A DNA stretch of 64,000 nucleotides from Deltaproteobacteria bacterium (GCA_032128115.1 JAQBHB010000036.1:5872-69871), one strand, 5' to 3'. Shown: positions 6,777 to 46,611, counted from the stretch's first letter. Notes: a model not told the origin generated them from the sequence alone. Program-made: numbers and translations.

Positions 6777-6810
6777 CCCGATGGAGTCAAACCCCCGATG
6801 GAGTCAAACC
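6777..6810. repeat. perfect 17-bp tandem duplication (CCCGATGGAGTCAAACC x2) spanning the DUF420 stop codon
   Basis: Read directly and confirmed through the track translation (..PDGVKPPMESN..). Copy 1 is 6777-6793 and copy 2 is 6794-6810. Copy 2 contains the TGA (6804-6806, minus strand) and last two codons of the DUF420 gene. Confidence 0.9.
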
Positions 6811-7238: not shown

Positions 7239-7406
7239 GATTTCCCTTGCCGGGGGGAGCGATTCGTTGCTAAAAATGGGGTGAAAAGGACCCTTTTCGA
7301 GTTACAGGTGCCACGGGTATGGACCTGGGCCGGGTTCCGTGGGTATCATGGCCCGGCTCTTCGGAGCTCCCTGGGAACGCGCGGATATTGCGACGCGGTG
7401 TGGCGG

Positions 7407-9560: not shown

Positions 9561-9662
9561 GCGTGCCGCTGGCGGCTGTGCTTTCCCGGGGGTTGGGATC
9601 GCAGGGGCTTGGGACTACCCTGTCGGAACCCAGGGGGGTGTACGCGGATCGGAGGATGGACC

Positions 9663-10199
9663 ATGGTCGTCGAGGACGAGGAATATTTCGAGCGCCCCCG
9701 GAAAACCAAGGGTTTGAGCTTCGACGCCGATCTGCTGCGCGAGCCGCTGCAGAGTCTTCCCGTGCGCCAGCCCGTGATCTTCTCGTCCAACGATACGGTC
9801 ACCGAGGCCGTGCGCGCCATGCAACAGGAGCACCGGGGTTGCGTGATCGTGACCGACGATGGCACGTCCCAGAGCAAGCTCGTTGGGATCTTCACCGAAC
9901 GCGACGTGCTTTTCCGGATCGTCGACCAGGGGCGCAATCCCGCGACGCTTCCCCTGGTCGATGTAATGACTTTCGATCCCGAGGTGCTTCCCATCACGTC
10001 GACCCTCGCGTACGTCCTCAACAAGATGTCACTCGGCGGTTTCCGCCACATCCCGGTGGTCGACGAGGACCATCACCCGGTCTTCGTTGTATCGGTGCGC
10101 GATGTGGTGGCATACCTGGTCGAGGCGTTTCCCCGCGAGATATTCAACCTGCCCGGCGAGCCTGGCACGCCCACCACCCGGTCCCGCGAGGGAGCCTGA
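9663..10199 (+). CDS. CBS-domain pair protein
   Basis: Trimmed to ATG 9663, with GGAGGA upstream. Two CBS repeats (..VTEAVRAMQQEHRGCVIVTDD..LVGIFTERDV.. and ..TLAYVLNKMSLGGFRHIPVVDED..VFVVSVRDVV..). Confidence 0.8.
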   Translation: MVVEDEEYFERPRKTKGLSFDADLLREPLQSLPVRQPVIFSSNDTVTEAVRAMQQEHRGCVIVTDDGTSQSKLVGIFTERDVLFRIVDQGRNPATLPLVDVMTFDPEVLPITSTLAYVLNKMSLGGFRHIPVVDEDHHPVFVVSVRDVVAYLVEAFPREIFNLPGEPGTPTTRSREGA

Positions 10200-10711: not shown

Positions 10712-13669
10712 CTACAGGCAGTTGTTGACCCCGGAGCTGTCTACGCAGATGGGCAGCTCGTTGCTCTGCGGCCCGCCCGGGTTCTGCACCTGCAGCAGGT
10801 AGGTGCCCTCGGGTGACGGCAACGAATCGAGATTGATTCGGATCAGCTCGGTGCTGCAATAGGGGCCGAACGTGGCTCCGCCCACGTTGCAGCTGCCGTT
10901 GCCGGCGATCGAGCTGCAGCACTCGAGGCTGGCACCCTCGGGCTGCCCGTCGAGCAGGATCACGCTGTCCGAACGCACCCAGGTGCCGGTGATTCCCATG
11001 TCCGTCGTGCTGGTGCCGTTGTTGGGCAGGTGCGGCACGCCCGGATCGCCCGTGTCGCCGCTCCCAGACACCGAGAGCAGCGGCTGCGTATGGGTGGACT
11101 TGCCCCAGTTCTCGGGCAGCCGACCCGTGAGCGTGGCAGTGATGGTGCCCGCCTCGGCCGCCGCCTCCAGCTCCGCGCGGGTGATCTGGATCTGGCCCGC
11201 CTGGTAGAGGCCGGTGTCGGCGTCGTATGAAATGGTGACGGCCGCGCCGTCGACCACGGCCCTGCCCCGCAGGTTGATGGCGCCCCTTGCGTCGGCCGCC
11301 TCGAGATCGTCCAGCAGGTCGAGGGCCGCATCGGCGCGGGCCTGCACGATCCAGAGGCTCGAGTGCAGGGTCACCTGGCGGCCGGTGGCCCCAGAGGTGC
11401 CCGTGCTGGCCTCCTCGAACATCTGGAAGATGTCGCCGGGCCCCACGTTGTAGGTGGGGGTGAACACCAGGAAGGCCGCGGCGAAGGTGGTGATCTCCCG
11501 GAAGCCCACGCTGGGATTCCACTGCAGACTCGGGGGCACCAGACCCGTGCCGGCCGCAAACTCCTGCAACTCTTCCGCCGCGGTCACGCCCATCGAGAAC
11601 TGCAGGAAGCGATCGGTCATGCCGCGCATGGTGGGCGCGTCGAAACCGTTGAGGGTGGCCGAGTTGGTGCCCGCACCCAGGGGAAGCTCGTGGCAGCCCG
11701 CATTCGAGTCGGCGCAGGTGTCCGGGTTGTTGGTGATCCCGCCCTGGTTCATGAAGAAGTCGCGGAAGCCGAGATTCGCGCTGGCCGAGACGCTGTCGTC
11801 GACGCGGCGCGCACGCGCCGGCGGATATTGCACGGACGCCTGGAAGGTGGCCATGTTGTCGCGTTCGGTCGGCGTGAGCTGGTTGCCCCCCGGATTGCAC
11901 GTGCCCGTCTGGTCGCACATCACCCCGGAGAGGGCCCCGTCAACCAGGTCGAGGAAGCACAGGTGGTCGCTGTCCGGATCGCCGGACGTAATGGCGCAGT
12001 CGGTGCCTCCGTTGCCGCCGCCGCCCACGGCCCCGTTGCCGCCGCCGAAGGGGTCGCCGAGCACGCCGTCCCAGTGCAGGGGGATCGTGTTCTTGAGGCC
12101 GCGAATCGGCATGGTCGAGCGGGGCTCGTCGTCGCCGGTGCAGGCGCCGAAGAAGCAGGCGCCGCCGATCCGCCACAGCAGCTGGTCGGTGTTGCCGTCC
12201 GGGTGACAGCTGGCGCACGCGAACGTGCCCGTGTCTGAGGCGTTGGCGTCGTTGAAGGCGATGCGGCCCAGACGCACGGCGTCTGGGGTGGGGTCGTTGC
12301 CCACGGGGATGGTATCGGTGATCGCGAGGTTGTCGGGGTCCGAGACGTCCACCACGGACACGCTGTTGTCCAGGGTGTTCAGCACGTAGGCGGTCTCCGG
12401 TGCGTCGCCGGCGCCGGAGCGGAGTGCAACGCCGCGCGGAATCGCGCCCACGTCGAGAATGTCGCGTACCTCACCGGTGGTGGCATTCACGCTGAACACG
12501 CGGCTCGACGCCGCGGCGGTCACCACCAGGGTCGAGTCGTCGTCGCTGATGGCGATGCCGTAGGGCGTCGCCAGTTGATCGCCCGCCGCCGGGTGGGCCC
12601 CGCAACTGGTTCCGCATTCGGGCTCGGGGAGGGACTCGAGTTCGTGGATGGTGGGCGCGCCGCAGCTGCCGCCATTGCAGTCCACCTCCGCGATCTGGTT
12701 CAGGAAGATGCGGTTGTCGAGATCGATCAGGTTGTCGCCGTCGATTCCGTTCACGGCGTTGCGCGCGTGGGTCTGGGCCACGAAGACCCGGTCGTCGCTG
12801 CTGACGGCGATGCCGTACAGCAGGGTGCCCACGTGCTCCACCACGTCCACCAGGGCGAGCGTTGCGGCGTCGTAGACGTACAGGTCCCGATCCGGAACGT
12901 CGGTATCGATGATGATGTTCTTGGTTTCGCCGGGAAGGTTGGGGTTCGTGGCGAATGCGAAGAGATCGTTCTCGTCCAGCGTGCAGTTCTCGGGTGGCTC
13001 GCCGGCGCCGGTGCCCGTGGGGCACGTCGAGAGCTCCGATTGGTTGCCCGATTCAAAGGCGCTCACGTAGAGGCGGCCGTTGCGAACGGCGATGGCGCGC
13101 GGGTCCTGGGCCGTCAGCGCGATGGGGGCGAGGCCGATATTGTGGCCGCCGATGCCCTGAACCACCACCGCGATCCGGTTCCTGGAAGACAGCGCCACGA
13201 AGGCCCGCGTGTTCGACTCGAAGGCGATACCCACGGGCTCATCGAAATCGGTGGAGCCGTTGCCGTCGATGTCCTGCACCGTTTCGATCACTTCGTTCAA
13301 GAGAGCCGGCCCGAAGGCCGGGTCCGTATTGACGATGCTGATGGAGTCCGACAGGTGATTCGCCACCCAGACGCGATTGCCGTCGGGGCGAACGGCGACA
13401 CTCACCGGCTCGAGGCCGACCTTCAGCTCCTTGAGCACCTTTTTCGTGGCGGTGTCGATGATGCTGAGGCTGTCGCTGGTGGTGTTGACCACATACAGAC
13501 GCGAGCCATCGGGCGAAAGGGCAATGGGATTCGACTGGGGGCTGGTGAACAGGGCGTGCCCCGGAGGCTCATGGGGGCTCGGGACCGGTTGCTGGCCCGT
13601 GCATTTGGCGCCCAGCGCCGACACGGCCAGTGCAGTGATCAGCGTGAGCATCGCGAACGGGTTGCGCAT
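10712..13669 (-). CDS. large secreted protein: YVTN-type beta-propeller repeats + CxxCH-containing middle region + C-terminal Ig-like module (985 aa)
   Basis: Signal peptide MRNPFAMLTLITALAVSALGA. Repeats such as LSPDGSRLYVVNTTSDSLSIIDTATKKV and VRPDGNRVWVANHLSDSISIVN. Motif FACASCHPDGNTDQLLW, a later CADSNAGCHELP, and the tail GTYLLQVQNPGGPQSNELPICV. Confidence 0.75.
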   Translation of the reverse strand: MRNPFAMLTLITALAVSALGAKCTGQQPVPSPHEPPGHALFTSPQSNPIALSPDGSRLYVVNTTSDSLSIIDTATKKVLKELKVGLEPVSVAVRPDGNRVWVANHLSDSISIVNTDPAFGPALLNEVIETVQDIDGNGSTDFDEPVGIAFESNTRAFVALSSRNRIAVVVQGIGGHNIGLAPIALTAQDPRAIAVRNGRLYVSAFESGNQSELSTCPTGTGAGEPPENCTLDENDLFAFATNPNLPGETKNIIIDTDVPDRDLYVYDAATLALVDVVEHVGTLLYGIAVSSDDRVFVAQTHARNAVNGIDGDNLIDLDNRIFLNQIAEVDCNGGSCGAPTIHELESLPEPECGTSCGAHPAAGDQLATPYGIAISDDDSTLVVTAAASSRVFSVNATTGEVRDILDVGAIPRGVALRSGAGDAPETAYVLNTLDNSVSVVDVSDPDNLAITDTIPVGNDPTPDAVRLGRIAFNDANASDTGTFACASCHPDGNTDQLLWRIGGACFFGACTGDDEPRSTMPIRGLKNTIPLHWDGVLGDPFGGGNGAVGGGGNGGTDCAITSGDPDSDHLCFLDLVDGALSGVMCDQTGTCNPGGNQLTPTERDNMATFQASVQYPPARARRVDDSVSASANLGFRDFFMNQGGITNNPDTCADSNAGCHELPLGAGTNSATLNGFDAPTMRGMTDRFLQFSMGVTAAEELQEFAAGTGLVPPSLQWNPSVGFREITTFAAAFLVFTPTYNVGPGDIFQMFEEASTGTSGATGRQVTLHSSLWIVQARADAALDLLDDLEAADARGAINLRGRAVVDGAAVTISYDADTGLYQAGQIQITRAELEAAAEAGTITATLTGRLPENWGKSTHTQPLLSVSGSGDTGDPGVPHLPNNGTSTTDMGITGTWVRSDSVILLDGQPEGASLECCSSIAGNGSCNVGGATFGPYCSTELIRINLDSLPSPEGTYLLQVQNPGGPQSNELPICVDSSGVNNCL

Positions 13670-19697: not shown

Positions 19698-21005
19698 TCA
19701 GGCGAGGACGGGAAGCGGCGCGAAGGGCCCACCGGGAAGCACGGCGGCGGGATCGCCTCCCAGCCAGTGCTGGATGATCGCGGCGTACAGGCGGCGGAAG
19801 TCCGTGGTCACCTTCAGGTTTCCGTCATCGTCCAGGTCGCGGAGGTCGGGCATTGCGCCGTAGATGCCGCCGGCAACCGGAGCGCCCATCAGCATCGAGA
19901 CCCCGGCCCGGCCGTGATCGGTTCCCGATCCCGCGCCCGTCCCGTTCTGGTAGGCGCGCCGGCCGAACTCGGAATAGACCAGCGTGATCACCCGGTCGGC
20001 CATGCCCAGGTATTCCAGATCGAGCTGGAAATCCGCAAGCGCGTCCGAGAGGTTCTGCATCAGACGCCCGTGGCCGAAGTCGATCTCGGTGGTGCCCTGG
20101 TCGGCGTGGGTGTCGAAGCCGCCGGCCACCACGTGGAAGAAGCTGATCTGGCCGGCGTCGCTCGGGGACAGGGCGTCGTGGCGCAGGACGGAGGCCACCT
20201 GGCGCAGGTCGCGCGCCACCCCCGAGTTGGACGAGACGCTTCGCGGTCCCCACCGGTCGTTCTGGATCTCGCCCAGGCGCTGAGACGAGGAGATCAGGAT
20301 GCTCCCGGAGCGGGCGATGTGGGCCACCAGGCCCGAGCGGTCGTGCGCATCGCCGAAAATCGTTGCCCACGCCGCCAATCGGGCCGCGTCCTCGCCGTCG
20401 CTGGCCGCCAGCTTCGACGGCAGATGGAAGTCTGCGAGGCGGCGCGTGCCGATAGTGTCGTTGCTCATTGACGCGAGACTGGCGTTGATGCTCCCGCCGA
20501 ACGAAATGGCGCGCGGCGTCGCCGAGGCGCCCTCGGCGTCCAGCTGTCGCCCCACCCATCCGGTGCTGGCGCGTCCCAGGTCGCCGCTATGCCAGACGTC
20601 TCGGGCGGTGAAATGGGAGAGCGAGCTGTTGGGGAATCCCACGCCGTTGATCAGCGCGAGCTTTCCCTGGTCGAACAGGGCCTTGAGTCGCCCGCAGTTC
20701 GGATTCAGGGCCAGGGCCGTGCCCCGCACCGGGTCACGCCCGATCTCGGTGGCGTCGAGCATTCGGGCGGGGATCGTCAGGTCCGGTCGCAGCTGCCGGT
20801 AGATGCTGTACTGGGAGGTGACATCGCTGTTCAGGGGGATCACCGTGCCCAACAGATCGTTGCCCCCGTCCAGATACACCAGCACCAGGATCGGGTCGTT
20901 CGCCGATGCGGCTGCCGCCGGGCGCACCCGGGAGAGCAGGTGGGTCTGGCTGAGAACGGCCGTGGCCGCGGCGCTTCGCAGAAGCTGTCGTCGCGTGATC
21001 CGCAT
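19698..21005 (-). CDS. DUF1501-family protein (sulfatase-fold) with twin-arginine signal
   Basis: Trimmed to ATG 21005. Tat signal MRITRRQLLRSAAATAVL. Internal GGFDTHADQ and C-terminal TDHGRAG motifs are typical of DUF1501. Confidence 0.8.
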   Translation of the reverse strand: MRITRRQLLRSAAATAVLSQTHLLSRVRPAAAASANDPILVLVYLDGGNDLLGTVIPLNSDVTSQYSIYRQLRPDLTIPARMLDATEIGRDPVRGTALALNPNCGRLKALFDQGKLALINGVGFPNSSLSHFTARDVWHSGDLGRASTGWVGRQLDAEGASATPRAISFGGSINASLASMSNDTIGTRRLADFHLPSKLAASDGEDAARLAAWATIFGDAHDRSGLVAHIARSGSILISSSQRLGEIQNDRWGPRSVSSNSGVARDLRQVASVLRHDALSPSDAGQISFFHVVAGGFDTHADQGTTEIDFGHGRLMQNLSDALADFQLDLEYLGMADRVITLVYSEFGRRAYQNGTGAGSGTDHGRAGVSMLMGAPVAGGIYGAMPDLRDLDDDGNLKVTTDFRRLYAAIIQHWLGGDPAAVLPGGPFAPLPVLA

Positions 21006-21016
21006 GGGGGGTCTCC

Positions 21017-22411
21017 TCAGTGCACCTGGAACTCGGGAAGCGTGAGAAAAAGCGCGACGAGCCTGCGAAAATCGCGCTCGTACCACGCGTTGCTCCCCAG
21101 GTCCTCCTCGTCCACCGAGTCGATCAGCACGCGCCGGGTGGTGTCGGGCAGGGTCAGTTCGAAACGCGCTGCAAGCGAGTCCACGACCTGCGCCGCCGTA
21201 GTGGCGGTCTCGCCGAAGTACCGGATCGGGTCAAAGCGGTAGGAAACGATCCCGTCGGTACCGACGGCCAGATCCTCGGCGAACTCCACCCGTGCCAGGT
21301 ACTGGCTGGTGGTGAGCCACGCTTCGCCCCCGGTCCAGCCCTGTACGCCCGGCGGGTTGAACAGCTCCATGCCCATGCGCCGCATCGCGCGCGGCAGGGT
21401 CTCCATGAGAGTGCCCACACCCAGGTCCCAGATCGCCTGCAGCACGAACTCGACCGGGTTCTTGGCGCTCGATCGGCGCGCGCGCTCGGAATAGAACTCG
21501 TCGTGGGTCAAGATCGCGAAGACCAGGTCGCGGATCATGTAGCCGCTGTCGACGAAGGCATCGGCCAGCTCGTCCACCAGACCGAGATCCGGATCGGGGT
21601 ACGCGAACCAGGCCCAGAGCTTGCGCGAGATGAAATGCGCCAGCGTGGGACGCCCGCTGGTGTCCCGGTGTGTGAACAGGAGATCGATGACGTTTCGATC
21701 CGGCGGAAACTGCTCGCCTTCGGGGGTCTCCACGCCCAATTGGCCAACCGTTTCGAACTGCCGGTCTGCGAACAGGCGCTTGATGCCGTTGTCCCAGTGG
21801 TTGTGCGCGACGATGCTCCGGCCCTCCTCCCGCAGGATGCGGAAGCCCGCGAGGGACCGCGCCATGGCGACCACGTCGTCCTGGGTGTAGTTCGGGAAAC
21901 CCCTCACGTCCGTCGGGCCCAGGGTGAACAGCTCCATCAACTCGCGCCCGTAGTTCTCGTTGGGCGCATCCTTCGAGCTGATCGCTCCGTCCAGGAAGCG
22001 GAGCATGGCCGGGTCCCGGGTCACCTGATGGAGCAGGTCGCGAAAGGGGCCGAGCCCGTACATCCGGAACGTCGCGTTCTGGCGGGCCAGGTCATCGATT
22101 CGGACTCCCACATCGTAGGAGGACGGGAAGTGATCGTGCCAGAAGAGCACCATCTTCTCGTGGAGGCGCCACTCGCGGCTCAGCATCCGCCGCAGCCACC
22201 AGCGCTGGAGCGTCTCCAGGTCGGACCTCCTGCGGCCGTCGCCAGAGGGGCCGACCGCCGGGCTGGGCTCGGCGTCCAGCAGATCTTCGACTGCCCGTCG
22301 TCGGGTCTGGCCCGGCAGCTGTTCGAGGTCCGTCTTGTCGGCGCAGAAAGCCGCGCGTCGCAATAGATGCAACACGTCGCGCTGGTTCAGCCGGCTTCCG
22401 GCGCCCCCCAT
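21017..22411 (-). CDS. DUF1800-family protein
   Basis: 464 aa. N-terminal VLHLLRRAAFCA and internal FWHDHF, ENYGRELMELFTLG motifs are typical of DUF1800. It sits 11 nt upstream of its usual DUF1501 partner. Confidence 0.8.
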   Translation of the reverse strand: MGGAGSRLNQRDVLHLLRRAAFCADKTDLEQLPGQTRRRAVEDLLDAEPSPAVGPSGDGRRRSDLETLQRWWLRRMLSREWRLHEKMVLFWHDHFPSSYDVGVRIDDLARQNATFRMYGLGPFRDLLHQVTRDPAMLRFLDGAISSKDAPNENYGRELMELFTLGPTDVRGFPNYTQDDVVAMARSLAGFRILREEGRSIVAHNHWDNGIKRLFADRQFETVGQLGVETPEGEQFPPDRNVIDLLFTHRDTSGRPTLAHFISRKLWAWFAYPDPDLGLVDELADAFVDSGYMIRDLVFAILTHDEFYSERARRSSAKNPVEFVLQAIWDLGVGTLMETLPRAMRRMGMELFNPPGVQGWTGGEAWLTTSQYLARVEFAEDLAVGTDGIVSYRFDPIRYFGETATTAAQVVDSLAARFELTLPDTTRRVLIDSVDEEDLGSNAWYERDFRRLVALFLTLPEFQVH

Positions 22412-23576: not shown

Positions 23577-24437
23577 TTGTCGCCGCTCGCCTTCGCGAAG
23601 TATCACGCGCTGGGAAACGACTATCTGGTGGTGGAGGCCGCGTCGTGGTCGCCCTGGCTCACGGTGTCGGCATTGCGCCGCATCCAGGATCGCCACCTCG
23701 GGATTGGCGCGGATGGCGTACTGGTGCGCGACGCCGATCCGGCGCCCGGGCGCTTCGCCCTTCGCATCTTCAATCCCGACGGATCCGAGGCGGAAAAGAG
23801 CGGCAACGGCCTGCGGATCTTCGCCCGATACCTGTGGGACGCCGGCCGTGTGGGCGACGCCCCGTTCCCCGTGCACACGCCCGGAGGCGAAGTCTCCTGC
23901 CACGTGCGCCGTGGCGGGCGCTCGGTACAGGTGGAGATGGGGCGGGTTTCGTTCGACAGCCGCCAGATCCCGGTGGCCGGACCGCCGCGCGAGGTGCTGC
24001 GCGAGGCGCTTTCGGTGGCGGGCCGCGAACTGGAGTTCTCGGCCGCGAGCGTCGGCAATCCCCACTGCGTGCTGATCCGCGACTCGGTCTCCGAAGCCGA
24101 GACGCGCGAGTTGGGACCGCTCATCGAGAACGACGCGCGCTTTCCGAACCGCACCAATGTGCAGTTTGCCCGGGTGCGCAACCGCCAGAACCTGGAGATC
24201 CAGATCTGGGAGCGCGGCGCGGGCTACACCCTGGCCTCGGGCACCAGCGCCAGCGCTGCGGCGGCCGTGGCGCATCGCCTGGGCCTCTGCGACGCCCACA
24301 TGACCGTGCACATGCCCGGCGGCGCGCTGGCGATCGAGCTCACCGAAGCCGCAGGCGTGATCCTCACCGGGCCGGTCACCCGCGTCATGCAGGGAACTCT
24401 CGATCCCCGGACCCTTCAGGACCTGGCCTGGAGATGA
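23577..24437 (+). CDS. diaminopimelate-epimerase (DapF) family protein with both catalytic Cys positions occupied by Ser
   Basis: Frame of track ORF 23274..24437. It can only start after the upstream stop (23571), and I chose TTG 23577 (start uncertain). DapF blocks YHALGNDY, FNPDGSEAEKSGNGLRIFARY, VGNPHCV, WERGAGYTLASGTSASAAA. E. coli DapF has QCGNGARC and ACGSGACA at the two aligned sites. Confidence 0.8.
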   Translation: MSPLAFAKYHALGNDYLVVEAASWSPWLTVSALRRIQDRHLGIGADGVLVRDADPAPGRFALRIFNPDGSEAEKSGNGLRIFARYLWDAGRVGDAPFPVHTPGGEVSCHVRRGGRSVQVEMGRVSFDSRQIPVAGPPREVLREALSVAGRELEFSAASVGNPHCVLIRDSVSEAETRELGPLIENDARFPNRTNVQFARVRNRQNLEIQIWERGAGYTLASGTSASAAAAVAHRLGLCDAHMTVHMPGGALAIELTEAAGVILTGPVTRVMQGTLDPRTLQDLAWR

Positions 24438-25866
24438 ACTTCGCTCCGGGCCGGGGGCTATTGAACGAAACGAGCCGACCCGGGGCCCACGCCAGGGTCG
24501 CCGAAACCACCGCCGCGGCGACCAGCCACACCGAGTAGCGATAGTCGATCGCCGGAGCGAGCACCGCCAGAGGCACCACGGACAGCAAGCCGCTCGCAGC
24601 GATCGCCCGCGCGACGCGAGTCCTCTCGTCTCGTGCCCGCCAGGAGAATCCGAATACCAGCGTCGCGAGCAGCAGGTAGACCCACGGCAGACACGGGAGG
24701 CTGCCCTCGCAGGCGTCGAGCAGACTCTTGAGTGGTGCGTAGCCTGGGCGCGGCGAGAACTCGAGGGAGAACGTGTAGCCTTCGATCGGCTCGAACACGT
24801 GGACGAAGACCGGATCGGGTGCGAAGAGGACCGCTCGCATGATTCGGCCCCGATGGACCAGGTACTCCCGGGGGTGATCGACGATCGCTGCGAGCCAGGT
24901 TCCCAGGATCTCCCAGGACTCGCGAGTCGTGAGATGGGCGTGGTCGATGTCCTGGGTGAGCCGGCCGTCGACGCGCACGCGGCGGTAGTCGCAGCGGTAG
25001 GTCCTCGAGATCCAGCGCAGGCGCTTCAGGTCGAGGTCGGCTCGCGTGATCGCGGAACGTGGCACCAGGAGTTCGTTTCTCATGAGCGAGATCTGGGACA
25101 GGTCCCAGAGTGGGACGGCGGTGAAATAGGCCGTCCTCTTCACGCCCACGGTATTGACGACGGCCGCCCCTGAGATCATCGCCACCCCCAACGCGGCAAA
25201 GGCGCCGATCCGGCCCACCCGGCGCGACGCCAGCAGGGAATCCGCCAGCAGCCACAGCAGGGGCAGCACCGTCAAGAGGTTGTTGAAGCGAACCGCCAGG
25301 GCGTAGAACGCGAAGGGGAGCGCGGCCATGGCGGGCCCCTTCCTGCCACTTGCACGGGCCTGTAGCGTTAGCCCGCTCGTCGCCATCAGGGCGGACATGG
25401 AGCCCGAGTCTTTCGAGATGGTCGCCAGCACGCCGAATACCGGGGGGAAGAATCCGAGACCGAGCACGAGCAGTCCGCGCCCGACGGCGCCTTGCGCCAG
25501 GTTCGAGGCGATCAGCGCGAGGCCCGCCCAGTAGCCTCCGGCCTGCACGACGAGCATTCCGCTCGGCCCGAAGCTCACCTGATTCGTCAATTTCCACAGG
25601 TAGACCATGATCGGGGGGTGGGAGTTGTCGATTTCCCCGCTCGCGGCCTGTTGCAGCTGCCACGTGGCGTCCCACTCCATGAAGCCCGGAAAGAAGAGAT
25701 ACAGCGTGGCTGAAAACCCGATGACGCTCGCTAGCCAGGGCGCCCACGCCTTCTGGGACCGCCCCCTCGCTTGCTCCCCTCCGGCCGCGACTTCGATCTT
25801 CTGGTCCACGGGCCTTGCTACCTTGTGCCTGGCGCCTGGGAGAAGGTACCGCGCCGGGGCGCCCAC
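24385..25866 (-). CDS. polytopic membrane protein, GT-C-like glycosyltransferase candidate (493 aa)
   Basis: Ten or more hydrophobic helices. Acidic motif in the first predicted outer loop (FPGFMEWDATW), as in PMT/ArnT-type GT-C enzymes. Divergent from the methyltransferase-GT2-DUF2304 operon. GTG start; the 5' end is uncertain. Fold call not verified. Confidence 0.6.
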   Translation of the reverse strand: MGAPARYLLPGARHKVARPVDQKIEVAAGGEQARGRSQKAWAPWLASVIGFSATLYLFFPGFMEWDATWQLQQAASGEIDNSHPPIMVYLWKLTNQVSFGPSGMLVVQAGGYWAGLALIASNLAQGAVGRGLLVLGLGFFPPVFGVLATISKDSGSMSALMATSGLTLQARASGRKGPAMAALPFAFYALAVRFNNLLTVLPLLWLLADSLLASRRVGRIGAFAALGVAMISGAAVVNTVGVKRTAYFTAVPLWDLSQISLMRNELLVPRSAITRADLDLKRLRWISRTYRCDYRRVRVDGRLTQDIDHAHLTTRESWEILGTWLAAIVDHPREYLVHRGRIMRAVLFAPDPVFVHVFEPIEGYTFSLEFSPRPGYAPLKSLLDACEGSLPCLPWVYLLLATLVFGFSWRARDERTRVARAIAASGLLSVVPLAVLAPAIDYRYSVWLVAAAVVSATLAWAPGRLVSFNSPRPGAKFISRPGPEGSGDREFPA

Positions 25867-25886
25867 TTGATAGAATCGGTGATCCC

Positions 25887-26624
25887 ATGGAGATCGATTC
25901 CGACAGTCTCGAGCGCCTCGTACCCGATCGGGCCGCCCCGTGGGGGGTCACGGGGAGCAAGACACTCGCTCTGCACCTGCAGCGCTACGCGTTCGCGTTG
26001 GAGCACGCGAAACCCGGGCGCCTGCTGGACGCCGCCTGCGGGGTCGGGTATGGCACGCGGCTCCTGTCCGATCAGGCCCCGGGCGTCGAAGCCCACGGAA
26101 TCGACATCTCCGAGCAGACGATCGCCTACGCGCGTAAGCGTTATGGAAATGCGGCGACCCACTTCACCTGGGCCGATGCCCTGCGCTTCAACGACCCGGA
26201 GGGCTTCGACACGATCGTGTCCCTCGAGACAATCGAGCACGTGCCCGATCCCCCTGCGCTGGTGGCGCACCTGCTCACGCTTCTGCGGCCGGGCGGCGTC
26301 TTCGTGGCTTCGGTGCCGACCACGCCGACCACGGACGTCAACCCGCACCACCTCCACGATTTCACCCAGAAGTCGTTCCGACACATGGTAGAGGCCCACG
26401 GGCTGGAGGAGATCGCCAGTACCCAGCAGGTGCATTCGGTGAATCCGCTCACGATGCTCACGAGAAAGGAGGCGCGATTGAGCGACGTCCGACGGGGCCT
26501 CGTCCGCTACTACCTGTCGCATCCGGCGTCCCTGGCCCGTCGGGTGGGAGCGACGCTCCGCTACGGATTCTCCATCCACTACTTGACCGTCGCGTGGCAG
26601 AGCCCGTCCGATCCAGCCGCATGA
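25887..26624 (+). CDS. class I SAM-dependent methyltransferase
   Basis: Trimmed to ATG 25887. Motif I LLDAACGVGYGTRLL, later FDTIVSLETIEHV and LRPGGVFVAS. Confidence 0.85.
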   Translation: MEIDSDSLERLVPDRAAPWGVTGSKTLALHLQRYAFALEHAKPGRLLDAACGVGYGTRLLSDQAPGVEAHGIDISEQTIAYARKRYGNAATHFTWADALRFNDPEGFDTIVSLETIEHVPDPPALVAHLLTLLRPGGVFVASVPTTPTTDVNPHHLHDFTQKSFRHMVEAHGLEEIASTQQVHSVNPLTMLTRKEARLSDVRRGLVRYYLSHPASLARRVGATLRYGFSIHYLTVAWQSPSDPAA

Positions 26625-27334
26625 GTTCCGGAGATGCGATTACCCTGATTCCCGCCTTCAACGAGGAGCCGCGACTGCCCGCGATTCTGGAGGGTCTGCG
26701 CGACGTGTTCGGAGAATCCGAGGTCGTGGTGATCGACGACGGTTCCCGCGACGGGACGGGCGCGGTGGCCCGGCGTCACGGGGCTACGGTGCTGACCCAC
26801 CCCTTCAACCTGGGGTACGGAGCAGCGCTCCAGACCGGCTACAAGTACGCCCTCGGGCGGGGCGCGAAGCTGGTGGTCCAGATAGACGCGGACGGTCAGC
26901 ACGATCCGAGGCAGATCCCCGCACTGGTGCGACTTCTACTCGAGGGGGAGGCCGATCTGGTACTAGGCTCGCGCTTCCTGGAGCCAGGCATGTATCACAT
27001 GGGTCGTATGCGCACGATCGCTCGCCTGGGCTTCCAGCGCCTGGCGCGGGTGGCGGGTCTCCAGATCACCGACCCCACGTCCGGATTCCAGGCCATGAAT
27101 CGAGCCGTACTCGATCTCTACACGCTGGAATTCTTCCCATCCGACTATCCCGACGTCGACGTGTTGCTCGAGGCACACCGCAGCGGTCTGCGCATCCGCG
27201 AATGCCCGGTCGCCATGAACGAGAGTCAGCGACCGTCTACGCTCCATGGCGGTCTCAAGTCCCTCTACTACATCTACCGGCTGGCGCTGGCCCTGTTCGC
27301 GGGGCTGCGCCTGGGAAACCAACGCCAGGGCTGA
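26621..27334 (+). CDS. GT2-family glycosyltransferase (polyprenyl-phosphate sugar synthase type, DPM1/PpgS-like)
   Basis: ATG 26621 overlaps the methyltransferase stop (ATGA). Motifs ITLIPAFNEE, VVVIDDGSRDGT and QIDADGQHDP (DxD). Size and lack of TM helices fit Dpm1-like enzymes. Confidence 0.85.
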   Translation: MSSGDAITLIPAFNEEPRLPAILEGLRDVFGESEVVVIDDGSRDGTGAVARRHGATVLTHPFNLGYGAALQTGYKYALGRGAKLVVQIDADGQHDPRQIPALVRLLLEGEADLVLGSRFLEPGMYHMGRMRTIARLGFQRLARVAGLQITDPTSGFQAMNRAVLDLYTLEFFPSDYPDVDVLLEAHRSGLRIRECPVAMNESQRPSTLHGGLKSLYYIYRLALALFAGLRLGNQRQG

Positions 27335-27348
27335 GGAGGAGGAGAACC

Positions 27349-27798
27349 GTGGATCAGACCATCGACCTGGGCCAGCTGCGCGAGGCCTTCCTTCAGGCCT
27401 CCGAGTCTGACACGCCGCGCGTCATCGCGGTGGTGTTCAGTGTGCTGCTGCTGCTCGCGGTGCTCCTGCTGGTGAGGCGGCGCCGGCTTCGCGAGGAGTA
27501 CACCCCGATCTGGGTTGCCGTCTCCGTGGTGATCACCCTGGTGGCCCTGCGGCTCGACCTGCTCGTCGGCCTGACGCGCGCCGTCGGAGGTTGGACGGTG
27601 AGCTCGACCCTCTTCTTCCTGGGGGAGGTCTTCCTCCTGCTCATCTGTTTGCAATACGCCGTGCGGCTCTCGCGCCACGGAGACCGGATCAAGGACCTGG
27701 CCCAGGAGGCGGCGCTGATGCGCGCCCGGGTCGATCGGCTTTCTGGGCTCGCGGCCCGGGAGCGGGATCGACCGCTGGCCCCGGGGGCGCCCCGGTAA
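27349..27798 (+). CDS. DUF2304-like small membrane protein (149 aa)
   Basis: GTG 27349 preceded by GAGGAGGAGGAG. Helices separated by RRRRLREEYTPIW, then a C-terminal coiled segment (IKDLAQEAALMRARVDRL). Its position directly after a GT2 is the usual DUF2304 context. Confidence 0.7.
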   Translation: MDQTIDLGQLREAFLQASESDTPRVIAVVFSVLLLLAVLLLVRRRRLREEYTPIWVAVSVVITLVALRLDLLVGLTRAVGGWTVSSTLFFLGEVFLLLICLQYAVRLSRHGDRIKDLAQEAALMRARVDRLSGLAARERDRPLAPGAPR

Positions 27799-27815
27799 GC
27801 GGTGCGCTGAGCCGT

Positions 27816-29972
27816 TTACGAGCCGGGGGTCGCCGTCAACTCGAAGCTGCCGTGCTGCGGATCCTCGGAGACCACTCGAATGAATCCGGACTTCAGCAAG
27901 GTGGCCAGAACCGCGTCTCCGGTGAGCCGGATGGAGAATCCGGAGAGGACGAGATCGGGGTCGTCCGGGAACGGGGCCGGGACGTCGCCCAGCGCCGGAA
28001 AAGCGGTGGCGCTTCGGACGGGCAGGTCGGTCTGGACGCGCAGTCGCGCCGCGGGGTTGCCGCTGTCGATCGCCGCCCATCCGCGAAGGATCACGTCGGC
28101 GCTGTCTCCGATCCGGATGACCTGCTCGCGACGCACGAAGCCGCGCACGTCGAAACTGCCCGCGCGTGTGGCTTCGATCTGTACGCTGATCCGGGCGGGG
28201 TCGAAGGCGTCGATCGGCAACCACACCACGTCGTTGTCCGTCAGGTACGGCTGGCGTCTCGGCGTCAGATTGATGAACAAGGTCCGATTGAACAGGTGTT
28301 CGAGGCGATCGGCTGGAAGATCCGGCAGCAGGGAGCGGAAGAACTCCAGCCGCGCTGCCAGCAGCGCGTGGGTCGCCGACTCGTATCCCCAACCGTTCAG
28401 CCAGGCGCCATAGGCGCCGTCGACTACCAACCAGCCCCTGGGGTGATTCCGGGCCACGCGATCGAGTGTGGCGGTGATCGGGGTGGCGGGGCGATCGAAG
28501 ATCGGCTTCGCCGACTGGATCGGATTGAAGCTGCCGAATCCAAGCAGGTTGGCGAGGGCCGCGCAGGCGAGCAGTGCCGCCGGCAGATGCTCGCGCAGTT
28601 TCACGCGGAGCGAGTAGACCACCCCCAGCGGCACGAGGATCAGCATTTCGTCGATCTGTGGCCGAAGCCGTGCGGGGGCCAGCAGATGCTCCGAGGCGAA
28701 CCAGGCCGCGACCACGGCCAGCCCGGCGCCGAGCATGCGGCGGCCCGTGATCCGCAGCGGAGCCGCGACGAGGGCACGGAGAGTCCACAGGAACACCAGG
28801 AATCCGCAGGCAAACCACATCCGCGTGGCGGGAACGCGATGCCAGAGGAACGGGACGCCGAAGCTGCTGGGAAGGGGCACCAGGATCCAGACGGACGTGA
28901 GGAGGACTCCGATCCCGAGAACGCCCAGTTGCCAGCGCAGCCGGTCGTCGGCGTCCGCTGGTGCCGATAGGCGCCGTTTCAGTGTGCGACCGTCCAGGAA
29001 GAAGATCGACAGGAGGGGAAGATAGGTTCCGACCGTGGACGCCTCGCAGATGTTCCATCCCGTCAGGGATCGGAAGCCGGAGGTGACGAGAAACGGGAAG
29101 ATCTGCGCCAGCCATTGAACTGCGACCACCTCCTCCGCGCCCCCGCTGACCCGCATGCCGGGAAAGACCGTTCCGGCGACGCTGGGGATCACGTCGCGCA
29201 GGTAGAAGCCCACCAGCAGCGCCCCCAGGGCGGCCCCCAGTAGTGGCGGAATCAGGTGCGCCGGCCGCAACGCCTGGGGCCGAAACGCAGCAACGGTCAC
29301 CAGCCCGGCGAAAGCGAGCGAGATCAGGGTTGGCGGGTAGAGGTGTGCGAACAGCCAGCCCGCGCTGACGTACAGGGCGAGCGCTGATTTCACCCAGGGC
29401 CGCTGTAACGACGTGAAGACCAGCAGCAGCCATGGAAAGCCCGCCAGCACGGGTCCGAGCGTGGTCCACCAGGTCTGTACGAAGCTGGTGAAGAAGAGCA
29501 CCAGCGCGGCCAGGGCCGCCTGGTTCCGGTTCAGGGGAACGATCTGCAGCAGACGGTAGTAGCCCAGCAGGAAGAGCACGATGAAGAACGCGTGATAGAA
29601 CGAGAACGCGTGGGCCGCCGGCGCCAGGTAGAACGGCCAGAAGAAGGGCTTGAAGACGAGGGACCAGTCGGCGAGTGGGAGCCCGTTCAGGTTGCGTAGA
29701 TCCTCGGCGTAGATCGACGTCCGGTTGAAGCGCTCGAAGCCGTTGTTGACGGTCGCCTGGATCAGGGGCGTCCAGAGACTCCACTCGTCGCTGCGGATGT
29801 CGCGAGGCTGCCCGAGCACGAGTCCGGTTCCGGAAGCGCCGACGCGCTCGAAGACCTGTCCGTAGGAGGAGGGGGTCCAGGCCAGCGCGACGTACACCAG
29901 GGCGGCCATCAACACGACGAGCGTGAACGGATCCCGAGTCGATGCGGTGCGGAGGCTCCCCATCTTCGTCAT
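27816..29972 (-). CDS. 718-aa polytopic membrane protein with C-terminal soluble domain; second GT-C-like candidate, family not recognised
   Basis: About 12 hydrophobic segments in the first ~480 aa. First loop RDIRSDEWSLWTPLIQ (acidic DE-W motif). C-terminal ~230 aa hydrophilic. Convergent with the GT2/DUF2304 operon, 17 nt apart. Confidence 0.6.
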   Translation of the reverse strand: MTKMGSLRTASTRDPFTLVVLMAALVYVALAWTPSSYGQVFERVGASGTGLVLGQPRDIRSDEWSLWTPLIQATVNNGFERFNRTSIYAEDLRNLNGLPLADWSLVFKPFFWPFYLAPAAHAFSFYHAFFIVLFLLGYYRLLQIVPLNRNQAALAALVLFFTSFVQTWWTTLGPVLAGFPWLLLVFTSLQRPWVKSALALYVSAGWLFAHLYPPTLISLAFAGLVTVAAFRPQALRPAHLIPPLLGAALGALLVGFYLRDVIPSVAGTVFPGMRVSGGAEEVVAVQWLAQIFPFLVTSGFRSLTGWNICEASTVGTYLPLLSIFFLDGRTLKRRLSAPADADDRLRWQLGVLGIGVLLTSVWILVPLPSSFGVPFLWHRVPATRMWFACGFLVFLWTLRALVAAPLRITGRRMLGAGLAVVAAWFASEHLLAPARLRPQIDEMLILVPLGVVYSLRVKLREHLPAALLACAALANLLGFGSFNPIQSAKPIFDRPATPITATLDRVARNHPRGWLVVDGAYGAWLNGWGYESATHALLAARLEFFRSLLPDLPADRLEHLFNRTLFINLTPRRQPYLTDNDVVWLPIDAFDPARISVQIEATRAGSFDVRGFVRREQVIRIGDSADVILRGWAAIDSGNPAARLRVQTDLPVRSATAFPALGDVPAPFPDDPDLVLSGFSIRLTGDAVLATLLKSGFIRVVSEDPQHGSFELTATPGS

Positions 29973-39901: not shown

Positions 39902-40987
39902 ATGGTCGATCCGAAGCGCGCGGGCGTGTCGGCGAAGGATTGGGAAGAGGCGACGGCCTCCTGCCACGAGCTTCGCGTGGCGAAGATCGTGGAGGAGACC
40001 CACGACGCCCGCTCCATCGTGCTCGCGGTGCCCGAGTCCCTGCGCGGGCGCTTCGCCTACAAGGCGGGGCAGTTCCTCAGCTTCAAGATCCCGTATCGGG
40101 GCGTGGTGCTGACGCGCAGCTATTCCCTGTGCAGTTCGCCCGAGTGCGATCCGGAGCACAAGATCGCCGTCAAGCGGGTCGACGACGGCAGGGTCTCCAA
40201 CTGGATGAACGACGAGCTTCGCGAGGACGACACCTTGATGGTGGTGCCGCCGGCGGGCTTCTTCGTGCTCGACGACGCGACCAACAAGCTGGTGCTCTTC
40301 AGCGGCGGCAGCGGCATCACGCCGTGCATCGCGTTGATCAAGACGGCACTCGTCACCACGCGTCGAGATCTCAAGCTGGTGTACGCCAACCGCGACGCCC
40401 GCTCGATCATCTTCCAGCAGGAGCTCGAGGCGTTGCGCGAAAAGCACGGAGATCGCTTCGAGATCGTGCACTCGCTCGACGACGTGGACGGGTTCCTGGA
40501 TCTGCACGCGGTCAAGCGCCACGTGGGCGATGACGTGGGTGCCGACTTCTACCTGTGCGGCCCGGGCCCCTTCATGGCGACGGTGGAGGCATCTCTCGAA
40601 GAGATGGGCGTGCACATGGACCGTATCCATGTGGAGCACTTCGCATCGCCCGCGGATCCCGGAGAGGCGGCAGAGGAAGCGGCGGCACCTGCCGCCGAGG
40701 GCGAGGTGGTGCCCGACTCGATCACGGTGGTGCTCGATGGGGTGACCCACCAGGTTCCCTACGAAGCGGGGGAGAAGGTGCTGCACGCGGTGCGGCGTGC
40801 GGGCCTCGAGCCCCCCTTCTCGTGCGAGGAGGGCTACTGCTCGTGCTGCATGGCGAAGCTCGTCGGCGGCCAGGTGCAGATGGCCACCAACGACTGCCTG
40901 ACCCCCGAGCTCCTGGAAGAGGGCTGGGTGCTCACCTGCCAGTCGCGCTGCGTGAGCGCCAGGATCCGGGTCGAATACCCGGACTGA
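39902..40987 (+). CDS. ferredoxin-NAD(P)+ reductase-type oxidoreductase with C-terminal plant-type 2Fe-2S domain (PaaE-like)
   Basis: Trimmed to ATG 39902. FAD-binding RSYSLCSSP, NAD-binding LVLFSGGSGITPCIAL, and a C-terminal cluster CEEGYCSCCMAKL..LTCQSRC. Confidence 0.85.
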   Translation: MVDPKRAGVSAKDWEEATASCHELRVAKIVEETHDARSIVLAVPESLRGRFAYKAGQFLSFKIPYRGVVLTRSYSLCSSPECDPEHKIAVKRVDDGRVSNWMNDELREDDTLMVVPPAGFFVLDDATNKLVLFSGGSGITPCIALIKTALVTTRRDLKLVYANRDARSIIFQQELEALREKHGDRFEIVHSLDDVDGFLDLHAVKRHVGDDVGADFYLCGPGPFMATVEASLEEMGVHMDRIHVEHFASPADPGEAAEEAAAPAAEGEVVPDSITVVLDGVTHQVPYEAGEKVLHAVRRAGLEPPFSCEEGYCSCCMAKLVGGQVQMATNDCLTPELLEEGWVLTCQSRCVSARIRVEYPD

Positions 40988-43388
40988 ACGCCGTCTGTGT
41001 GCCCCGCACCCGCGGCGCTGCGCCGAAGCGAACCAGCAGGGCCGGTGCCACCAGCACGTCGGCCAGGAACGCCGACACGATTGCGAAGCCCGTGAAGATC
41101 CCCATCTGCACCAGGTTCTGCATGGTGGCGAACGTGTACACGAGGAAGCCCGACGCCAGCACGATGGAAGTGAACAGCATGGCGCGCCCGGTGGTCTCCA
41201 GGCTGCGTTGCACGGCCAGGTGCGGGTCGCCGGTCATGGCGGAATAGCGCTGGAACTGGTGGGCGAAATGGATGGTGTCGTCGACGGCGATGGAGAGCAC
41301 CACGGCGCCGCTCATCATCGTGGAGAAGTCGATGGGGAACCCGAGCCATCCCATCAGACCCAGGGTCAGTGCAATCGGCGCCAGGTTCGGGATCATGCTG
41401 AGCAGGCCGCCTCGCAGGCTGCCCAGCACCAGGATCATGAGCGGTGTCACTACCAGGAGCGCGATGGCGTAGGAACTCGCCATGCTCCGGATCATCCCGG
41501 TGAACGTTCCCGCGTGGAGCGCCAGGGAGCCGGTCACGGTGATCCCCACATCGTCGCCGAGCAGCTGGCGGAACTTCTCCTCGATCTCGGCGATCACAGG
41601 CATGTGGTCGAAAGCGTCGGCATCGGTGACCCGCAGCGAGAAGCTCGCCAGCTGGAAGCGCGAGTCCACCACGTCTTCCAGGTCGTCGCTGCCCGTGTTC
41701 TCGAACAGCAGGAACTCCTGGGCCACCAGGCGGCGATCGTCGGGAATCGCGTAGAACGCCGGGCGGTTCTCGTTCAGGGCCTGGTGGATTTCCTGGAGCA
41801 CGTCGGCGGCCGACACGGTCTTGCCCACCGTGACGTGGTTGCGATCGATGGTTTCGCTCCACACCCGAAGCTCTTCGAGCCGGGCCAGCAGCGTAGGATC
41901 GTGAAGACCGTTATCCACCCGCGTGTCCAGCACGATCTCCAGGGGCGCGCTGCCGCCGAATCGCTCGTCGAGGATCTCGGCGGCGATGCGCACCGGCTCG
42001 TCTTCCGGCATCCAGGTGACCGGGTTGTGGGAGAACCGCAGCTGCCCGATGCCCGTGGCGCTCAGCACCATCAGGAGCGCCAGGCCCGCCAGGACGGCGC
42101 TGGGGCGGCGGGTGGCCAGGTTTCCCAGGGCCGCCAGCACGCCGTCGACCCGCGAGCGCGGCGCATGGATGGGCCGCCTGGAAAGCGGCGCCAGCGCCAG
42201 CCCCGCCGGCAGCAACACCACGGTGAACGCGAACGCGAAGATCACGCCCACGGGCCCGAAGATTCCGAAGTGCGCCACGGGCGCGAGACCTGCGTTGGCA
42301 AACGAGGCCAGGCCGCCGGCGGTGGTGAGGCTCGTCATGGCGATGGGCAGCCCCGAGTGACCCAGGGCGCCAGCGATGGCGTCGACCTTGTCTTCTCCTC
42401 GGGACAGGGCCCGGTAGAAGATCGTCAGCACGTGGATCGAATCGCCCACCCCCACCGCCAGCAGGAACGAAGGCAGCACCTGGATCGGCAGCGTGATGGG
42501 CACACCCGCCGCCGCCATGCTGGCGATGGTGCAGAGCAACGCGAGCAGCACCACGGCCAGGGGCAACAGCACTCCCGACAGCCGCCGGAAGAGTACGTAC
42601 AGAAGCAGCGTCATGATGCACACGGCGAGCGTCACGAACAGCGCGATGTCGCGCTGCATGGCCTTCATGAGCCGGGTCTCGATCATCGGGCCGCCTGTGG
42701 CGTGCAGACGGAAGTCCGGTCCATCGAAGCGTTCCATCACGCCCAGCGTGGCGTCGGCGATGGCGTAGGCCTCCTGCTCCGTGAGGAACGGGTGGCCCAC
42801 CTGCGCGCTCTCGTCGTCGAATCCGGACAGTTCCTCGACTCGCGCGCCGAGAGACGAATACGTGTCCGGTTCGACGAGCACGCTGGTGAGCCGCCCGTCC
42901 TCCGAGATCCAGAGATTCCGATAGAGCGGGTGCGCGAGCACGATCTCGCGGATGCGCGCCAGATCGGCGTCGTTGCGGGGCCAGTCCTCCAGCAGGTCGT
43001 CGACGATGAGCTCGTCTGCGACGCCGCGGGTGTAGCGGACGTTGATCAGGCTCGTGACCTCGTGCACCTGGGGGACGTCGCGCTCGAGCGCCCGGTGGAA
43101 CGCGCGCAGCTTCTCGAGGAACGCCAGGTTGAAGACATCCGGCGGCTCGACGGCGATGAAGATCGAGCCCTCGCGCTGGAACTGTGCGCGGAAGGCGTCG
43201 TAGTGGACGCGCGCCGGGTCGTCCGGGTGCAGAAAGGCCTGGTCGGAGCCGTCGATCGCGAGTTTCGGCAGCTGGCTTGCGAGGGCGACTACCGCCAGTC
43301 CCGTGACCGCCAGCGCTCGCAGGGGGTGCTGGGCCACGGCGCGTCCCCAACGCTCGAAGCCGTTCTCGATCTGCTGGCGGATCTCCAT
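40932..43388 (-). CDS. RND-superfamily permease of the COG1033 / MMPL / HpnN-like type (818 aa), paralog 1
   Basis: Two 6-TM bundles, each preceded by a large periplasmic loop. Paralogous to 48831..51236 along the full length (e.g. VTSLINVRYTRG vs VTSLVNARLTRG, LLFENTGSDDLEDVVDSRFQ vs LLFENSGSDDLEDLVDSRFQ). Confidence 0.85.
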   Translation of the reverse strand: MEIRQQIENGFERWGRAVAQHPLRALAVTGLAVVALASQLPKLAIDGSDQAFLHPDDPARVHYDAFRAQFQREGSIFIAVEPPDVFNLAFLEKLRAFHRALERDVPQVHEVTSLINVRYTRGVADELIVDDLLEDWPRNDADLARIREIVLAHPLYRNLWISEDGRLTSVLVEPDTYSSLGARVEELSGFDDESAQVGHPFLTEQEAYAIADATLGVMERFDGPDFRLHATGGPMIETRLMKAMQRDIALFVTLAVCIMTLLLYVLFRRLSGVLLPLAVVLLALLCTIASMAAAGVPITLPIQVLPSFLLAVGVGDSIHVLTIFYRALSRGEDKVDAIAGALGHSGLPIAMTSLTTAGGLASFANAGLAPVAHFGIFGPVGVIFAFAFTVVLLPAGLALAPLSRRPIHAPRSRVDGVLAALGNLATRRPSAVLAGLALLMVLSATGIGQLRFSHNPVTWMPEDEPVRIAAEILDERFGGSAPLEIVLDTRVDNGLHDPTLLARLEELRVWSETIDRNHVTVGKTVSAADVLQEIHQALNENRPAFYAIPDDRRLVAQEFLLFENTGSDDLEDVVDSRFQLASFSLRVTDADAFDHMPVIAEIEEKFRQLLGDDVGITVTGSLALHAGTFTGMIRSMASSYAIALLVVTPLMILVLGSLRGGLLSMIPNLAPIALTLGLMGWLGFPIDFSTMMSGAVVLSIAVDDTIHFAHQFQRYSAMTGDPHLAVQRSLETTGRAMLFTSIVLASGFLVYTFATMQNLVQMGIFTGFAIVSAFLADVLVAPALLVRFGAAPRVRGTQTAFSPGIRPGSWRSRSATGR

Positions 43389-43476
43389 GGCCGCAGCGTG
43401 GCGTTCGCAACGGAAGATGTCCTGATGAGAACCTGGGGGTTTCCTGGGGGTGTTGCTGTGTTCGAAGCTATTGAAA

Positions 43477-46581: not shown

Positions 46582-46611
46582 CCGCGCAGGGTATCACGCG
46601 CGAGCCGCGCC

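Follow-up and report, generated by a model that had tools for sequence, protein, structure and literature searches.

What might a bacterium do with a methyltransferase, a glycosyltransferase and a small membrane protein encoded between two large membrane proteins of uncharacterised families? The question is raised by a five-gene locus in a 64,000-nucleotide stretch of Deltaproteobacteria bacterium DNA (GCA_032128115.1, JAQBHB010000036.1:5872-69871; hereafter the window, from whose first letter positions are counted). There, a plus-strand operon of a class I S-adenosylmethionine (SAM)-dependent methyltransferase, a GT2 glycosyltransferase and a DUF2304 protein is flanked on both sides by minus-strand genes for polytopic proteins, one of 474 amino acids (aa) and one of 718 aa. 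The cluster probably encodes a glycosylation system of the periplasm in which the sugar donor is lipid-linked, with a logic like that of GtrA/GtrB/GtrC, ArnC/ArnT, GacI/GacJ/GacL and PpgS/Rv3632/Rv3779. Gene order and coupling, family and fold matches, conserved residues and conserved neighbourhoods all bear on this reading, and genome context is the strongest evidence for the assignment of the 718-aa protein, a member of DUF7657.

Single sugars added in the periplasm from lipid carriers alter O-antigens, capsules, teichoic acids and arabinogalactan, and such additions control phage adsorption, serotype and resistance to antimicrobial peptides. Many periplasmic transferases stay unannotated because they are very divergent. 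The logic of the pathway is well known, indeed textbook, and the gain is therefore one of annotation and enzyme discovery rather than of a new principle: both candidate transferases come from uncharacterised membrane families, for which the locus provides testable assignments. DUF7657 ranges over Proteobacteria, Cyanobacteria, Acidobacteria, Saccharimonadales and phages, while the family of the 474-aa protein comprises more than 4,400 sequence clusters and has no Pfam model.

The putative donor-synthesis operon

A preliminary description of the locus, made from the sequence alone, had proposed the methyltransferase-GT2-DUF2304 operon between two opposite-strand polytopic proteins. All five genes were found where it had placed them, and two identical public contigs, whose genes were called independently, agree (Table 1). 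The overlap that it reported between the methyltransferase stop and the GT2 start is present (four shared nucleotides, ATGA), as is the GT2 motif VVQIDADGQHDP. The DUF2304 gene begins 14 nt downstream of GT2, at a GTG preceded at 5 nt by GGAGGAGGAG, a strong ribosome-binding site; this start, together with the 149-aa gene call, was preferred to the start of a 198-aa open reading frame (ORF), which was rejected.

The GT2 matches Glycos_transf_2 in Pfam (4.8e-29). Its best NCBIfam match is PpgS (3.3e-32, 111.7 bits, profile positions 2-171 of 226), followed by AglJ and then by the haloarchaeal dolichyl-phosphate hexose transferase. Its best match in the PDB is Pyrococcus DPMS (5mlz, 1.2e-11), with DADGQH aligned to DADLQH, ahead of three ArnC structures and GtrB sll0501. 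These informative matches all put one sugar on a lipid phosphate, none of them reaching an equivalog cutoff, and the clustering with soluble-acceptor enzymes that would have spoken against a lipid-directed role was not seen. Because 111.7 bits falls far short of the 370-bit PpgS equivalog cutoff (NF058614), the GT2 is judged not to be an equivalog or ortholog of PpgS. A hydropathy scan found no hydrophobic segment and no transmembrane helix in it, and the enzyme is best regarded as a candidate polyprenyl-phosphate sugar synthase of the short PpgS/GacI type. Its closest relatives among the loci examined lie in the two that also carry DUF2304, L005 (2e-32) and L008 (2e-33); similarity at the remaining loci runs from about 1e-24 to 1e-6.

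The DUF2304 protein matches PF10066 at 1.3e-19, above the gathering score. The hydropathy scan shows three hydrophobic segments in it, the first followed by RRRR, and its C-terminal tail is basic; the scan is crude and does not fix helix numbers or topology. DUF2304 proteins are known partners of such synthases: GacJ binds the GT2 GacI in a complex that withstands detergent, and stimulates the synthesis of N-acetylglucosamine (GlcNAc)-P-undecaprenol, Rv3632 likewise stimulates PpgS, and GacI-GacJ fusion proteins exist (bioRxiv 10.1101/180810). By analogy, the protein encoded here is a candidate GacJ/Rv3632-type partner of the GT2. The methyltransferase matches Methyltransf_23 (8.8e-20) and also Methyltransf_11/12/25/31, and the PADLOC defence library returned a generic methyltransferase match only.

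The 77-bp spacer between the operon and the 474-aa gene presumably holds the promoters of both divergent units, judging by geometry alone; a sigma-70 consensus scan of this spacer gave no match, and consensus promoter and terminator scans across the cluster yielded nothing useful. At the other end, the DUF7657 gene converges on the operon with 17 bp between the two stops. Unrelated genes follow on both sides, those for DapF and a quinone oxidoreductase upstream of the cluster and those for thiolase-like, MaoC and acyl-CoA dehydrogenase proteins downstream. The convergent genes for DapF and the 474-aa protein share about 53 bp at their 3′ ends (24385-24437; 5704-7128 versus 7076-7936 on the public contig).

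Table 1. Features of the five-gene cluster, with positions in the window
Feature	Position	Strand	Remarks
Left polytopic protein gene	24385..25809	-	474 aa as called, GTG start at 25809
Left polytopic protein, longer ORF	24385..25866	-	493 aa if GTG at 25866 used
Divergent spacer, 474-aa gene / methyltransferase operon	25810..25886	.	77 bp
Class I SAM-dependent methyltransferase, soluble, first operon gene	25887..26624	+	245 aa
GT2 glycosyltransferase	26621..27334	+	237 aa; PF00535
DUF2304 small membrane protein	27349..27798	+	149 aa; PF10066
Right polytopic protein, DUF7657	27816..29972	-	718 aa (715 aa as called); PF24677

The DUF7657 protein and its neighbourhoods

The 718-aa protein, which the preliminary description had been unable to place in any family, matches DUF7657 at 1.4e-56 (192.5 bits, residues 17-399, against a gathering threshold of 26 bits), and so do all 31 of its aligned relatives. 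The neighbourhoods of this family were surveyed at 59 loci with flanks of up to 8 kb, 50 of the loci coming from one-per-species genomes that include Azospirillum, Comamonas, Rhodanobacter, Leptolyngbya, Acidobacteria, Saccharimonadales and others. A GT2 gene lies within 3 kb of DUF7657 at 36/59 loci, and at 16/59 within 0.5 kb; two more stand at 3-5 kb, and none lies beyond 5 kb. The other recurrent neighbours are GtrA (18/59), a detectable relative of the window's methyltransferase (8/59) and DUF2304 (2/59), the DUF2304 counts being possibly underestimates, since a phmmer search with a single sequence missed the known genes of L005 and L008 and a three-seed profile recovered only those. In Nisaea acidiphila, GtrA and DUF7657 are even fused into one protein, encoded directly downstream of a GT2.

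Several of these loci are instructive in their own right. L005 (GCA_001939945.1, MOEB01000029.1, 5150-13823) combines GT2-DUF2304 with a 118-aa EamA protein, a methyltransferase and DUF7657. Its cassette adjoins DprE2-like (adh_short), DprE1-like (FAD_binding_4/ALO) and UbiA genes, whose namesakes make decaprenyl-phospho-arabinose in mycobacteria, and a pentofuranose donor is possible for some DUF7657 enzymes. On a prophage-like viral contig (L075, IMGVR_UViG_2791355126_000001, 3913-7761), GT2, a class I methyltransferase and DUF7657 follow each other on the plus strand in reading frames that abut or overlap as measured from stop to stop; the methyltransferase therefore recurs with the GT2-DUF7657 pair outside the window. 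L059 (JGI Ga0643529_0000578, 3337-9821) encodes a 46%-identical DUF7657 protein, and its flanking genes are two GT2 genes and those for a Polysacc_deac_1 deacetylase, an NAD-dependent epimerase and an acyltransferase of the hexapeptide type, a set that suggests an amino-sugar pathway reminiscent of ArnC/ArnD/ArnT.

The temperate Paraburkholderia phage IPK (L062, PV588664.1) carries a lone DUF7657 gene (4911-6677, 588 aa), with no adjacent GT2 or GtrA, between its structural genes and the end that holds a HicB-like antitoxin and the integrase (8617-9711). This position is the classical site of O-antigen conversion (seroconversion) genes in temperate phages, and the gene looks like a single-gene surface-glycan conversion module using a lipid-linked sugar of the host. 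On an Azospirillum oryzae plasmid (L063, NZ_CP054615.1) and in L060, DUF7657 follows a peptidase-domain ATP-binding cassette (ABC) transporter, an HlyD-family adaptor and ManC; with such type I secretion neighbours, a secreted protein is a possibility as the acceptor at Azospirillum-type loci. A tblastn search with the 718-aa protein found matches only in two Azospirillum plasmids and three phage records.

Across loci, DUF2304 and GtrA alternate beside GT2 and DUF7657, which hints that they fill related roles. This alternation beside one transferase family bears on the role of GacJ- and Rv3632-type DUF2304 proteins, which should not be assumed to be flippases, because L005 has a small EamA protein in addition to DUF2304 and because GacJ works alongside a separate flippase, GacK.

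Could DUF7657 instead belong to the fatty-acid/thiolase operon upstream of it, for instance as a lipid-modifying enzyme, its proximity to GT2 being a coincidence of convergent genes? The thiolase-like gene lies on the same strand and ends only 33-42 bp before the DUF7657 start, a terminator scan of this gap found no terminator-like site, and in L059, too, genes for thiolase and 3-hydroxyacyl-CoA dehydrogenase lie 5-7 kb upstream. Yet the recurrent neighbour over the 59 loci is GT2, with or without GtrA, and not lipid-catabolism genes, and co-transcription with the neighbouring operon would in any case be compatible with use of the GT2 product. We consider this explanation quite improbable.

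How, then, is the protein built? In the alignment of 31 homologs, the acidic RSDEW motif singled out in the preliminary description holds up: E63 is invariant, R60 and D62 are kept in at least 90%, and so are R81, E90, R93, D102, K108 and R274. The AlphaFold (AF2) model (pLDDT 91, pTM 0.91) begins with helix 15-29, followed by a loop of about 90 residues that carries the conserved positions, some ten more membrane helices and, from about residue 485, a C-terminal domain of about 235 residues made of an alpha/beta part and a beta-sandwich, which matches Ig-like sandwiches in Foldseek. Against the PDB, the model finds ArnT first (5f15, E 7e-4, probability 1.0, target-normalised TM-score 0.49), then AglB, AftD, AftA, PimE, PglB, DPY19, ALG3, ALG12 and Pmt1-Pmt2; Foldseek against viral structures was uninformative. 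The protein can accordingly be named a candidate GT-C glycosyltransferase on the strength of its predicted fold. DUF7654, tried as a sister family, was rejected and is actually a C-terminal domain found in some DUF7657 proteins.

The 474-aa protein and the proposed pathway

Pfam (at E<=1) and NCBIfam give no match for the 474-aa protein. A word-indexed search found only 14 homologs for it, whereas an exhaustive profile search recovered 4,410 clusters at 50% identity with E<=1e-3, of which 1,020 reach E<=1e-30. In 100-120 diverse members of the family, D47 and R424 never vary, and the motifs YPGxMxxD, HPP, KD and RxN are conserved. D47 is the D of 'WD' in FMEWDATW, the other first-loop motif of the preliminary description, whose other acidic residue, the E of 'MEW', is not conserved. 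In the AF2 model (pLDDT 82, pTM 0.83), D47 directly follows helix 23-39, and Foldseek places STT3 from several oligosaccharyltransferase (OST) structures first among PDB entries (best E 2e-2, probability 1.0), followed by EmbB, PglB, PIG-U, ALG3 and AftA. Of 100 relatives, six match PMT_2 (GT39/GT83-like; best 1.6e-5), and no other Pfam family is matched by more than two; the protein is best described as a distant PMT_2-like GT-C candidate rather than a PMT_2 member. The 718-aa protein has the stronger support for a GT-C fold. Compared profile to profile, the two families show no relationship (probability 0.6%), and sequence-profile searches of both against PDB sequences returned nothing meaningful.

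These fold matches, read together with the operon, also bear on the idea that the adjacency of the genes is incidental, the GT2 glycosylating a cytoplasmic non-lipid acceptor and the polytopic proteins being a transporter, a polymerase or a ligase. That the GT2 scores far under every NCBIfam equivalog cutoff, that neither large protein reaches the gathering threshold of a named GT-C Pfam family and that the Foldseek E-values of both models are weak would all suit such a view. However, every well-scoring ranked GT2 match of known function uses a polyprenyl or dolichyl phosphate acceptor, the GT2 is paired with a DUF2304 protein, and in many phyla GT2 and DUF7657 genes are tightly clustered. For both large models, moreover, no transporter or receptor exceeds a Foldseek probability of 0.15, while GT-C enzymes reach 0.6-1.0; neither Wzy nor WaaL, the O-antigen polymerase and ligase, is among the top 50 matches of either, and the meaningful PDB matches of these confident models are GT-C enzymes only. 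Incidental adjacency is thus very improbable, and the logic first proposed for the locus (a lipid-sugar GT2, a DUF2304 helper and a GT-C enzyme on the outer face) finds support in families, folds and neighbourhoods alike.

Of the two candidate transferases that the preliminary description placed in the cassette, both look GT-C-like, and the case for membership of the 474-aa protein is much weaker: a GT2 lies within 1.5 kb at 3/14 loci of its family, against the 36/59 of DUF7657. This invites the explanation that only DUF7657 works with GT2/DUF2304, the 474-aa protein being an unrelated GT-C-like enzyme with another lipid-linked donor and a mere neighbour. Besides the low count, the close homologs of L006, L007 and L061 (44-58% identity) are solitary genes with unrelated neighbours. 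Tandem paralog arrays are common, as in L069 (3693-7901, three in a row), L067 and L008, and P0055, P0059, P0060 and P0062 are single polypeptides of two or three tandem copies, up to 1386 aa long, which together suggest a general role with multiple acceptors. On the other side, the 474-aa gene of the window diverges from the operon across the 77-bp spacer only, and in L008 GT2 and DUF2304 are directly followed on the plus strand by two members of the family, with two 4-nt gene overlaps. That DUF7657 alone works with the operon is possible, if somewhat doubtful. Fusions with GT2 and DUF2304 were considered for the long members (837-1386 aa) and rejected, these having no Pfam domain and consisting of tandem copies of the family itself. 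Scans with this family turned up 11 metagenome loci and no viral ones.

Returning to the favoured reading, that of a periplasmic glycosylation system, we infer its chemical steps, the topology of its proteins in the membrane and the sharing of one donor as follows. On the cytoplasmic face, the three-helix DUF2304 protein would hold the soluble GT2 at the membrane, and the GT2 would move one sugar from a nucleotide sugar onto polyprenyl phosphate, both steps being modelled on homology and on the GacI/GacJ work. The translationally coupled methyltransferase would probably alter that sugar, or its precursor, before export. The lipid-linked sugar would then be flipped by a component outside those identified in the cluster. 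On the periplasmic face, DUF7657 would pass the sugar to an envelope acceptor, a step suggested by its fold and its linkage to GT2: the R60/D62/E63 loop after the first helix may be the catalytic site, and the C-terminal beta-rich domain may bind the acceptor. As a second GT-C-like enzyme with a weaker link, the 474-aa protein may serve a second acceptor or position with this donor.

Several observations weigh against this picture. The five-gene cluster lacks a flippase gene (GtrA, SMR/EamA, Wzx, MATE), and an iterated profile of GtrA matched nothing in the 64 kb of the window, over which SMR, Wzx and MATE were not searched. No GT2 is nearby at 21/59 DUF7657 loci or at 11/14 loci of the 474-aa family, where the genes are single or in paralog arrays. 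Given the 33-42-bp gap, DUF7657 may be co-transcribed with lipid-metabolism genes and not with the GT2 operon. The Foldseek E-values are modest (7e-4 for DUF7657, 2e-2 for the 474-aa protein), with TM-scores of 0.3-0.5, and the outward orientation predicted for the conserved DUF7657 loop follows from a basic N-terminus and a helix count. The PDB matches of the methyltransferase span its SAM-binding core only and give no substrate assignment, and a literature search on the name DUF7657 returned no paper.

A more ambitious version can be formulated, in which DUF7657 and the 474-aa protein are two new CAZy-level GT-C families, one GT2/DUF2304 pair feeds both, the sugar is methylated while lipid-linked, and DUF2304 fills the role of GtrA, including that of aiding the donor across the membrane. 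All of this together is unlikely; if true, a methylated lipid-phosphate sugar donor and a flippase role for DUF2304 would both be new for bacteria.

The wider window and comparison with known systems

The host had been described as diderm-like, and this fits what the window holds: an MlaE/F/D operon with an auxiliary lipoprotein (53870-56912), a DUF1302 protein (46612-48015), two MMPL-type RND transporters and a cytochrome oxidase operon. The transporters, which have MMPL/sterol-sensing domains, flank the DUF1302 protein and a 1034-aa regulator with AAA and winged-helix (Trans_reg_C) domains on the minus strand at 40932-51919, where a TetR regulator lies alongside; with the Mla genes, this region is a concentration of lipid-trafficking genes. 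Just upstream of the neighbours of the cassette, adjacent DUF1800 and DUF1501 genes occupy 19698-22411 (minus strand), the DUF1501 protein having an N-terminal twin-arginine-like signal. Further away are a 947-aa, probably secreted protein (6717-9560, plus strand) with sulfatase and concanavalin/LamG-like domains and C-terminal EF-hand/thrombospondin type 3 calcium-binding repeats, and a 985-aa protein (10712-13669, minus strand) with beta-propeller (lactonase/YncE-like) and di-haem cytochrome c peroxidase (MauG-like) segments.

Among known systems, ArnC/ArnT (lipid A aminoarabinose) shares structural features with the cluster: ArnT is the top structural match of DUF7657, ArnC is among the PDB matches of the GT2, and the Polysacc_deac_1 and epimerase genes of L059 recall ArnD and ArnA. 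However, DUF7657 has no sequence-level similarity to ArnT, and the window has no Arn-type sugar-nucleotide genes.

The three-component pentofuranose system of Citrobacter youngae offers a second parallel. Its GT136 enzyme, ORF12, is like DUF7657 in architecture, with some 11 helices, the first of them followed by a helical domain in the periplasm, and a beta-rich domain at the C-terminus that binds carbohydrate; the closest solved structure is ArnT, and the ORF12 residues D31, E34, H106 and R349 are essential (PMC11127046). The UbiA, DprE1-like and DprE2-like genes beside the DUF7657 locus L005 add to the likeness. The essential residues are nevertheless out of position relative to R60/D62/E63/R274 of DUF7657, when compared by reported positions, and the donor synthase is a phosphoribosyltransferase there and a GT2 here. 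None of the Azospirillum plasmids and phage records matched by tblastn is named in that paper (PMC11127046).

The likeness to PpgS (Rv3631)/Rv3632/Rv3779 of Mycobacterium tuberculosis, first pointed out in the preliminary description, stands as far as the shared logic goes, PpgS being the best NCBIfam match of the GT2 and Rv3632 being a DUF2304 protein. Rv3779 is the GT-C partner in that system. The likeness does not extend to equivalence, the GT2 of the window reaching 111.7 bits against the 370-bit cutoff.

In Streptococcus pyogenes, GacI/GacJ/GacK/GacL builds the GlcNAc side chain of the Group A carbohydrate with a short GT2 that makes a polyprenyl-phosphate sugar, and its gene is followed by that for a DUF2304 protein in an order identical to that of the window; there, a three-helix DUF2304 partner binds and stimulates the GT2, and a GT-C enzyme transfers the sugar outside the membrane. 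In contrast, the Wzx-type flippase GacK has no counterpart in the cluster, the transferases come from other families, and here the host is a diderm, a methyltransferase is coupled to the GT2 and there are two candidate GT-C enzymes.

The often phage-borne GtrA/GtrB/GtrC systems of O-antigen glucosylation represent the commonest context of DUF7657, with GT2 and GtrA at 18/59 loci and one GtrA-DUF7657 fusion. DUF7657 likewise occurs in a temperate phage and on a viral contig, and the function would likewise be the periplasmic modification of a finished glycan. Unlike these systems, the window has DUF2304 and no detected GtrA, its GT2 lacks the C-terminal membrane helices of GtrB, and DUF7657, to the extent checked, lies outside the Gtr transferase families described so far. 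Overall, the closest analogues are the diderm Gtr-type three-component systems and GacI/GacJ/GacL: the logic of the cassette is not specifically mycobacterial, and in a diderm it is expected rather than surprising.

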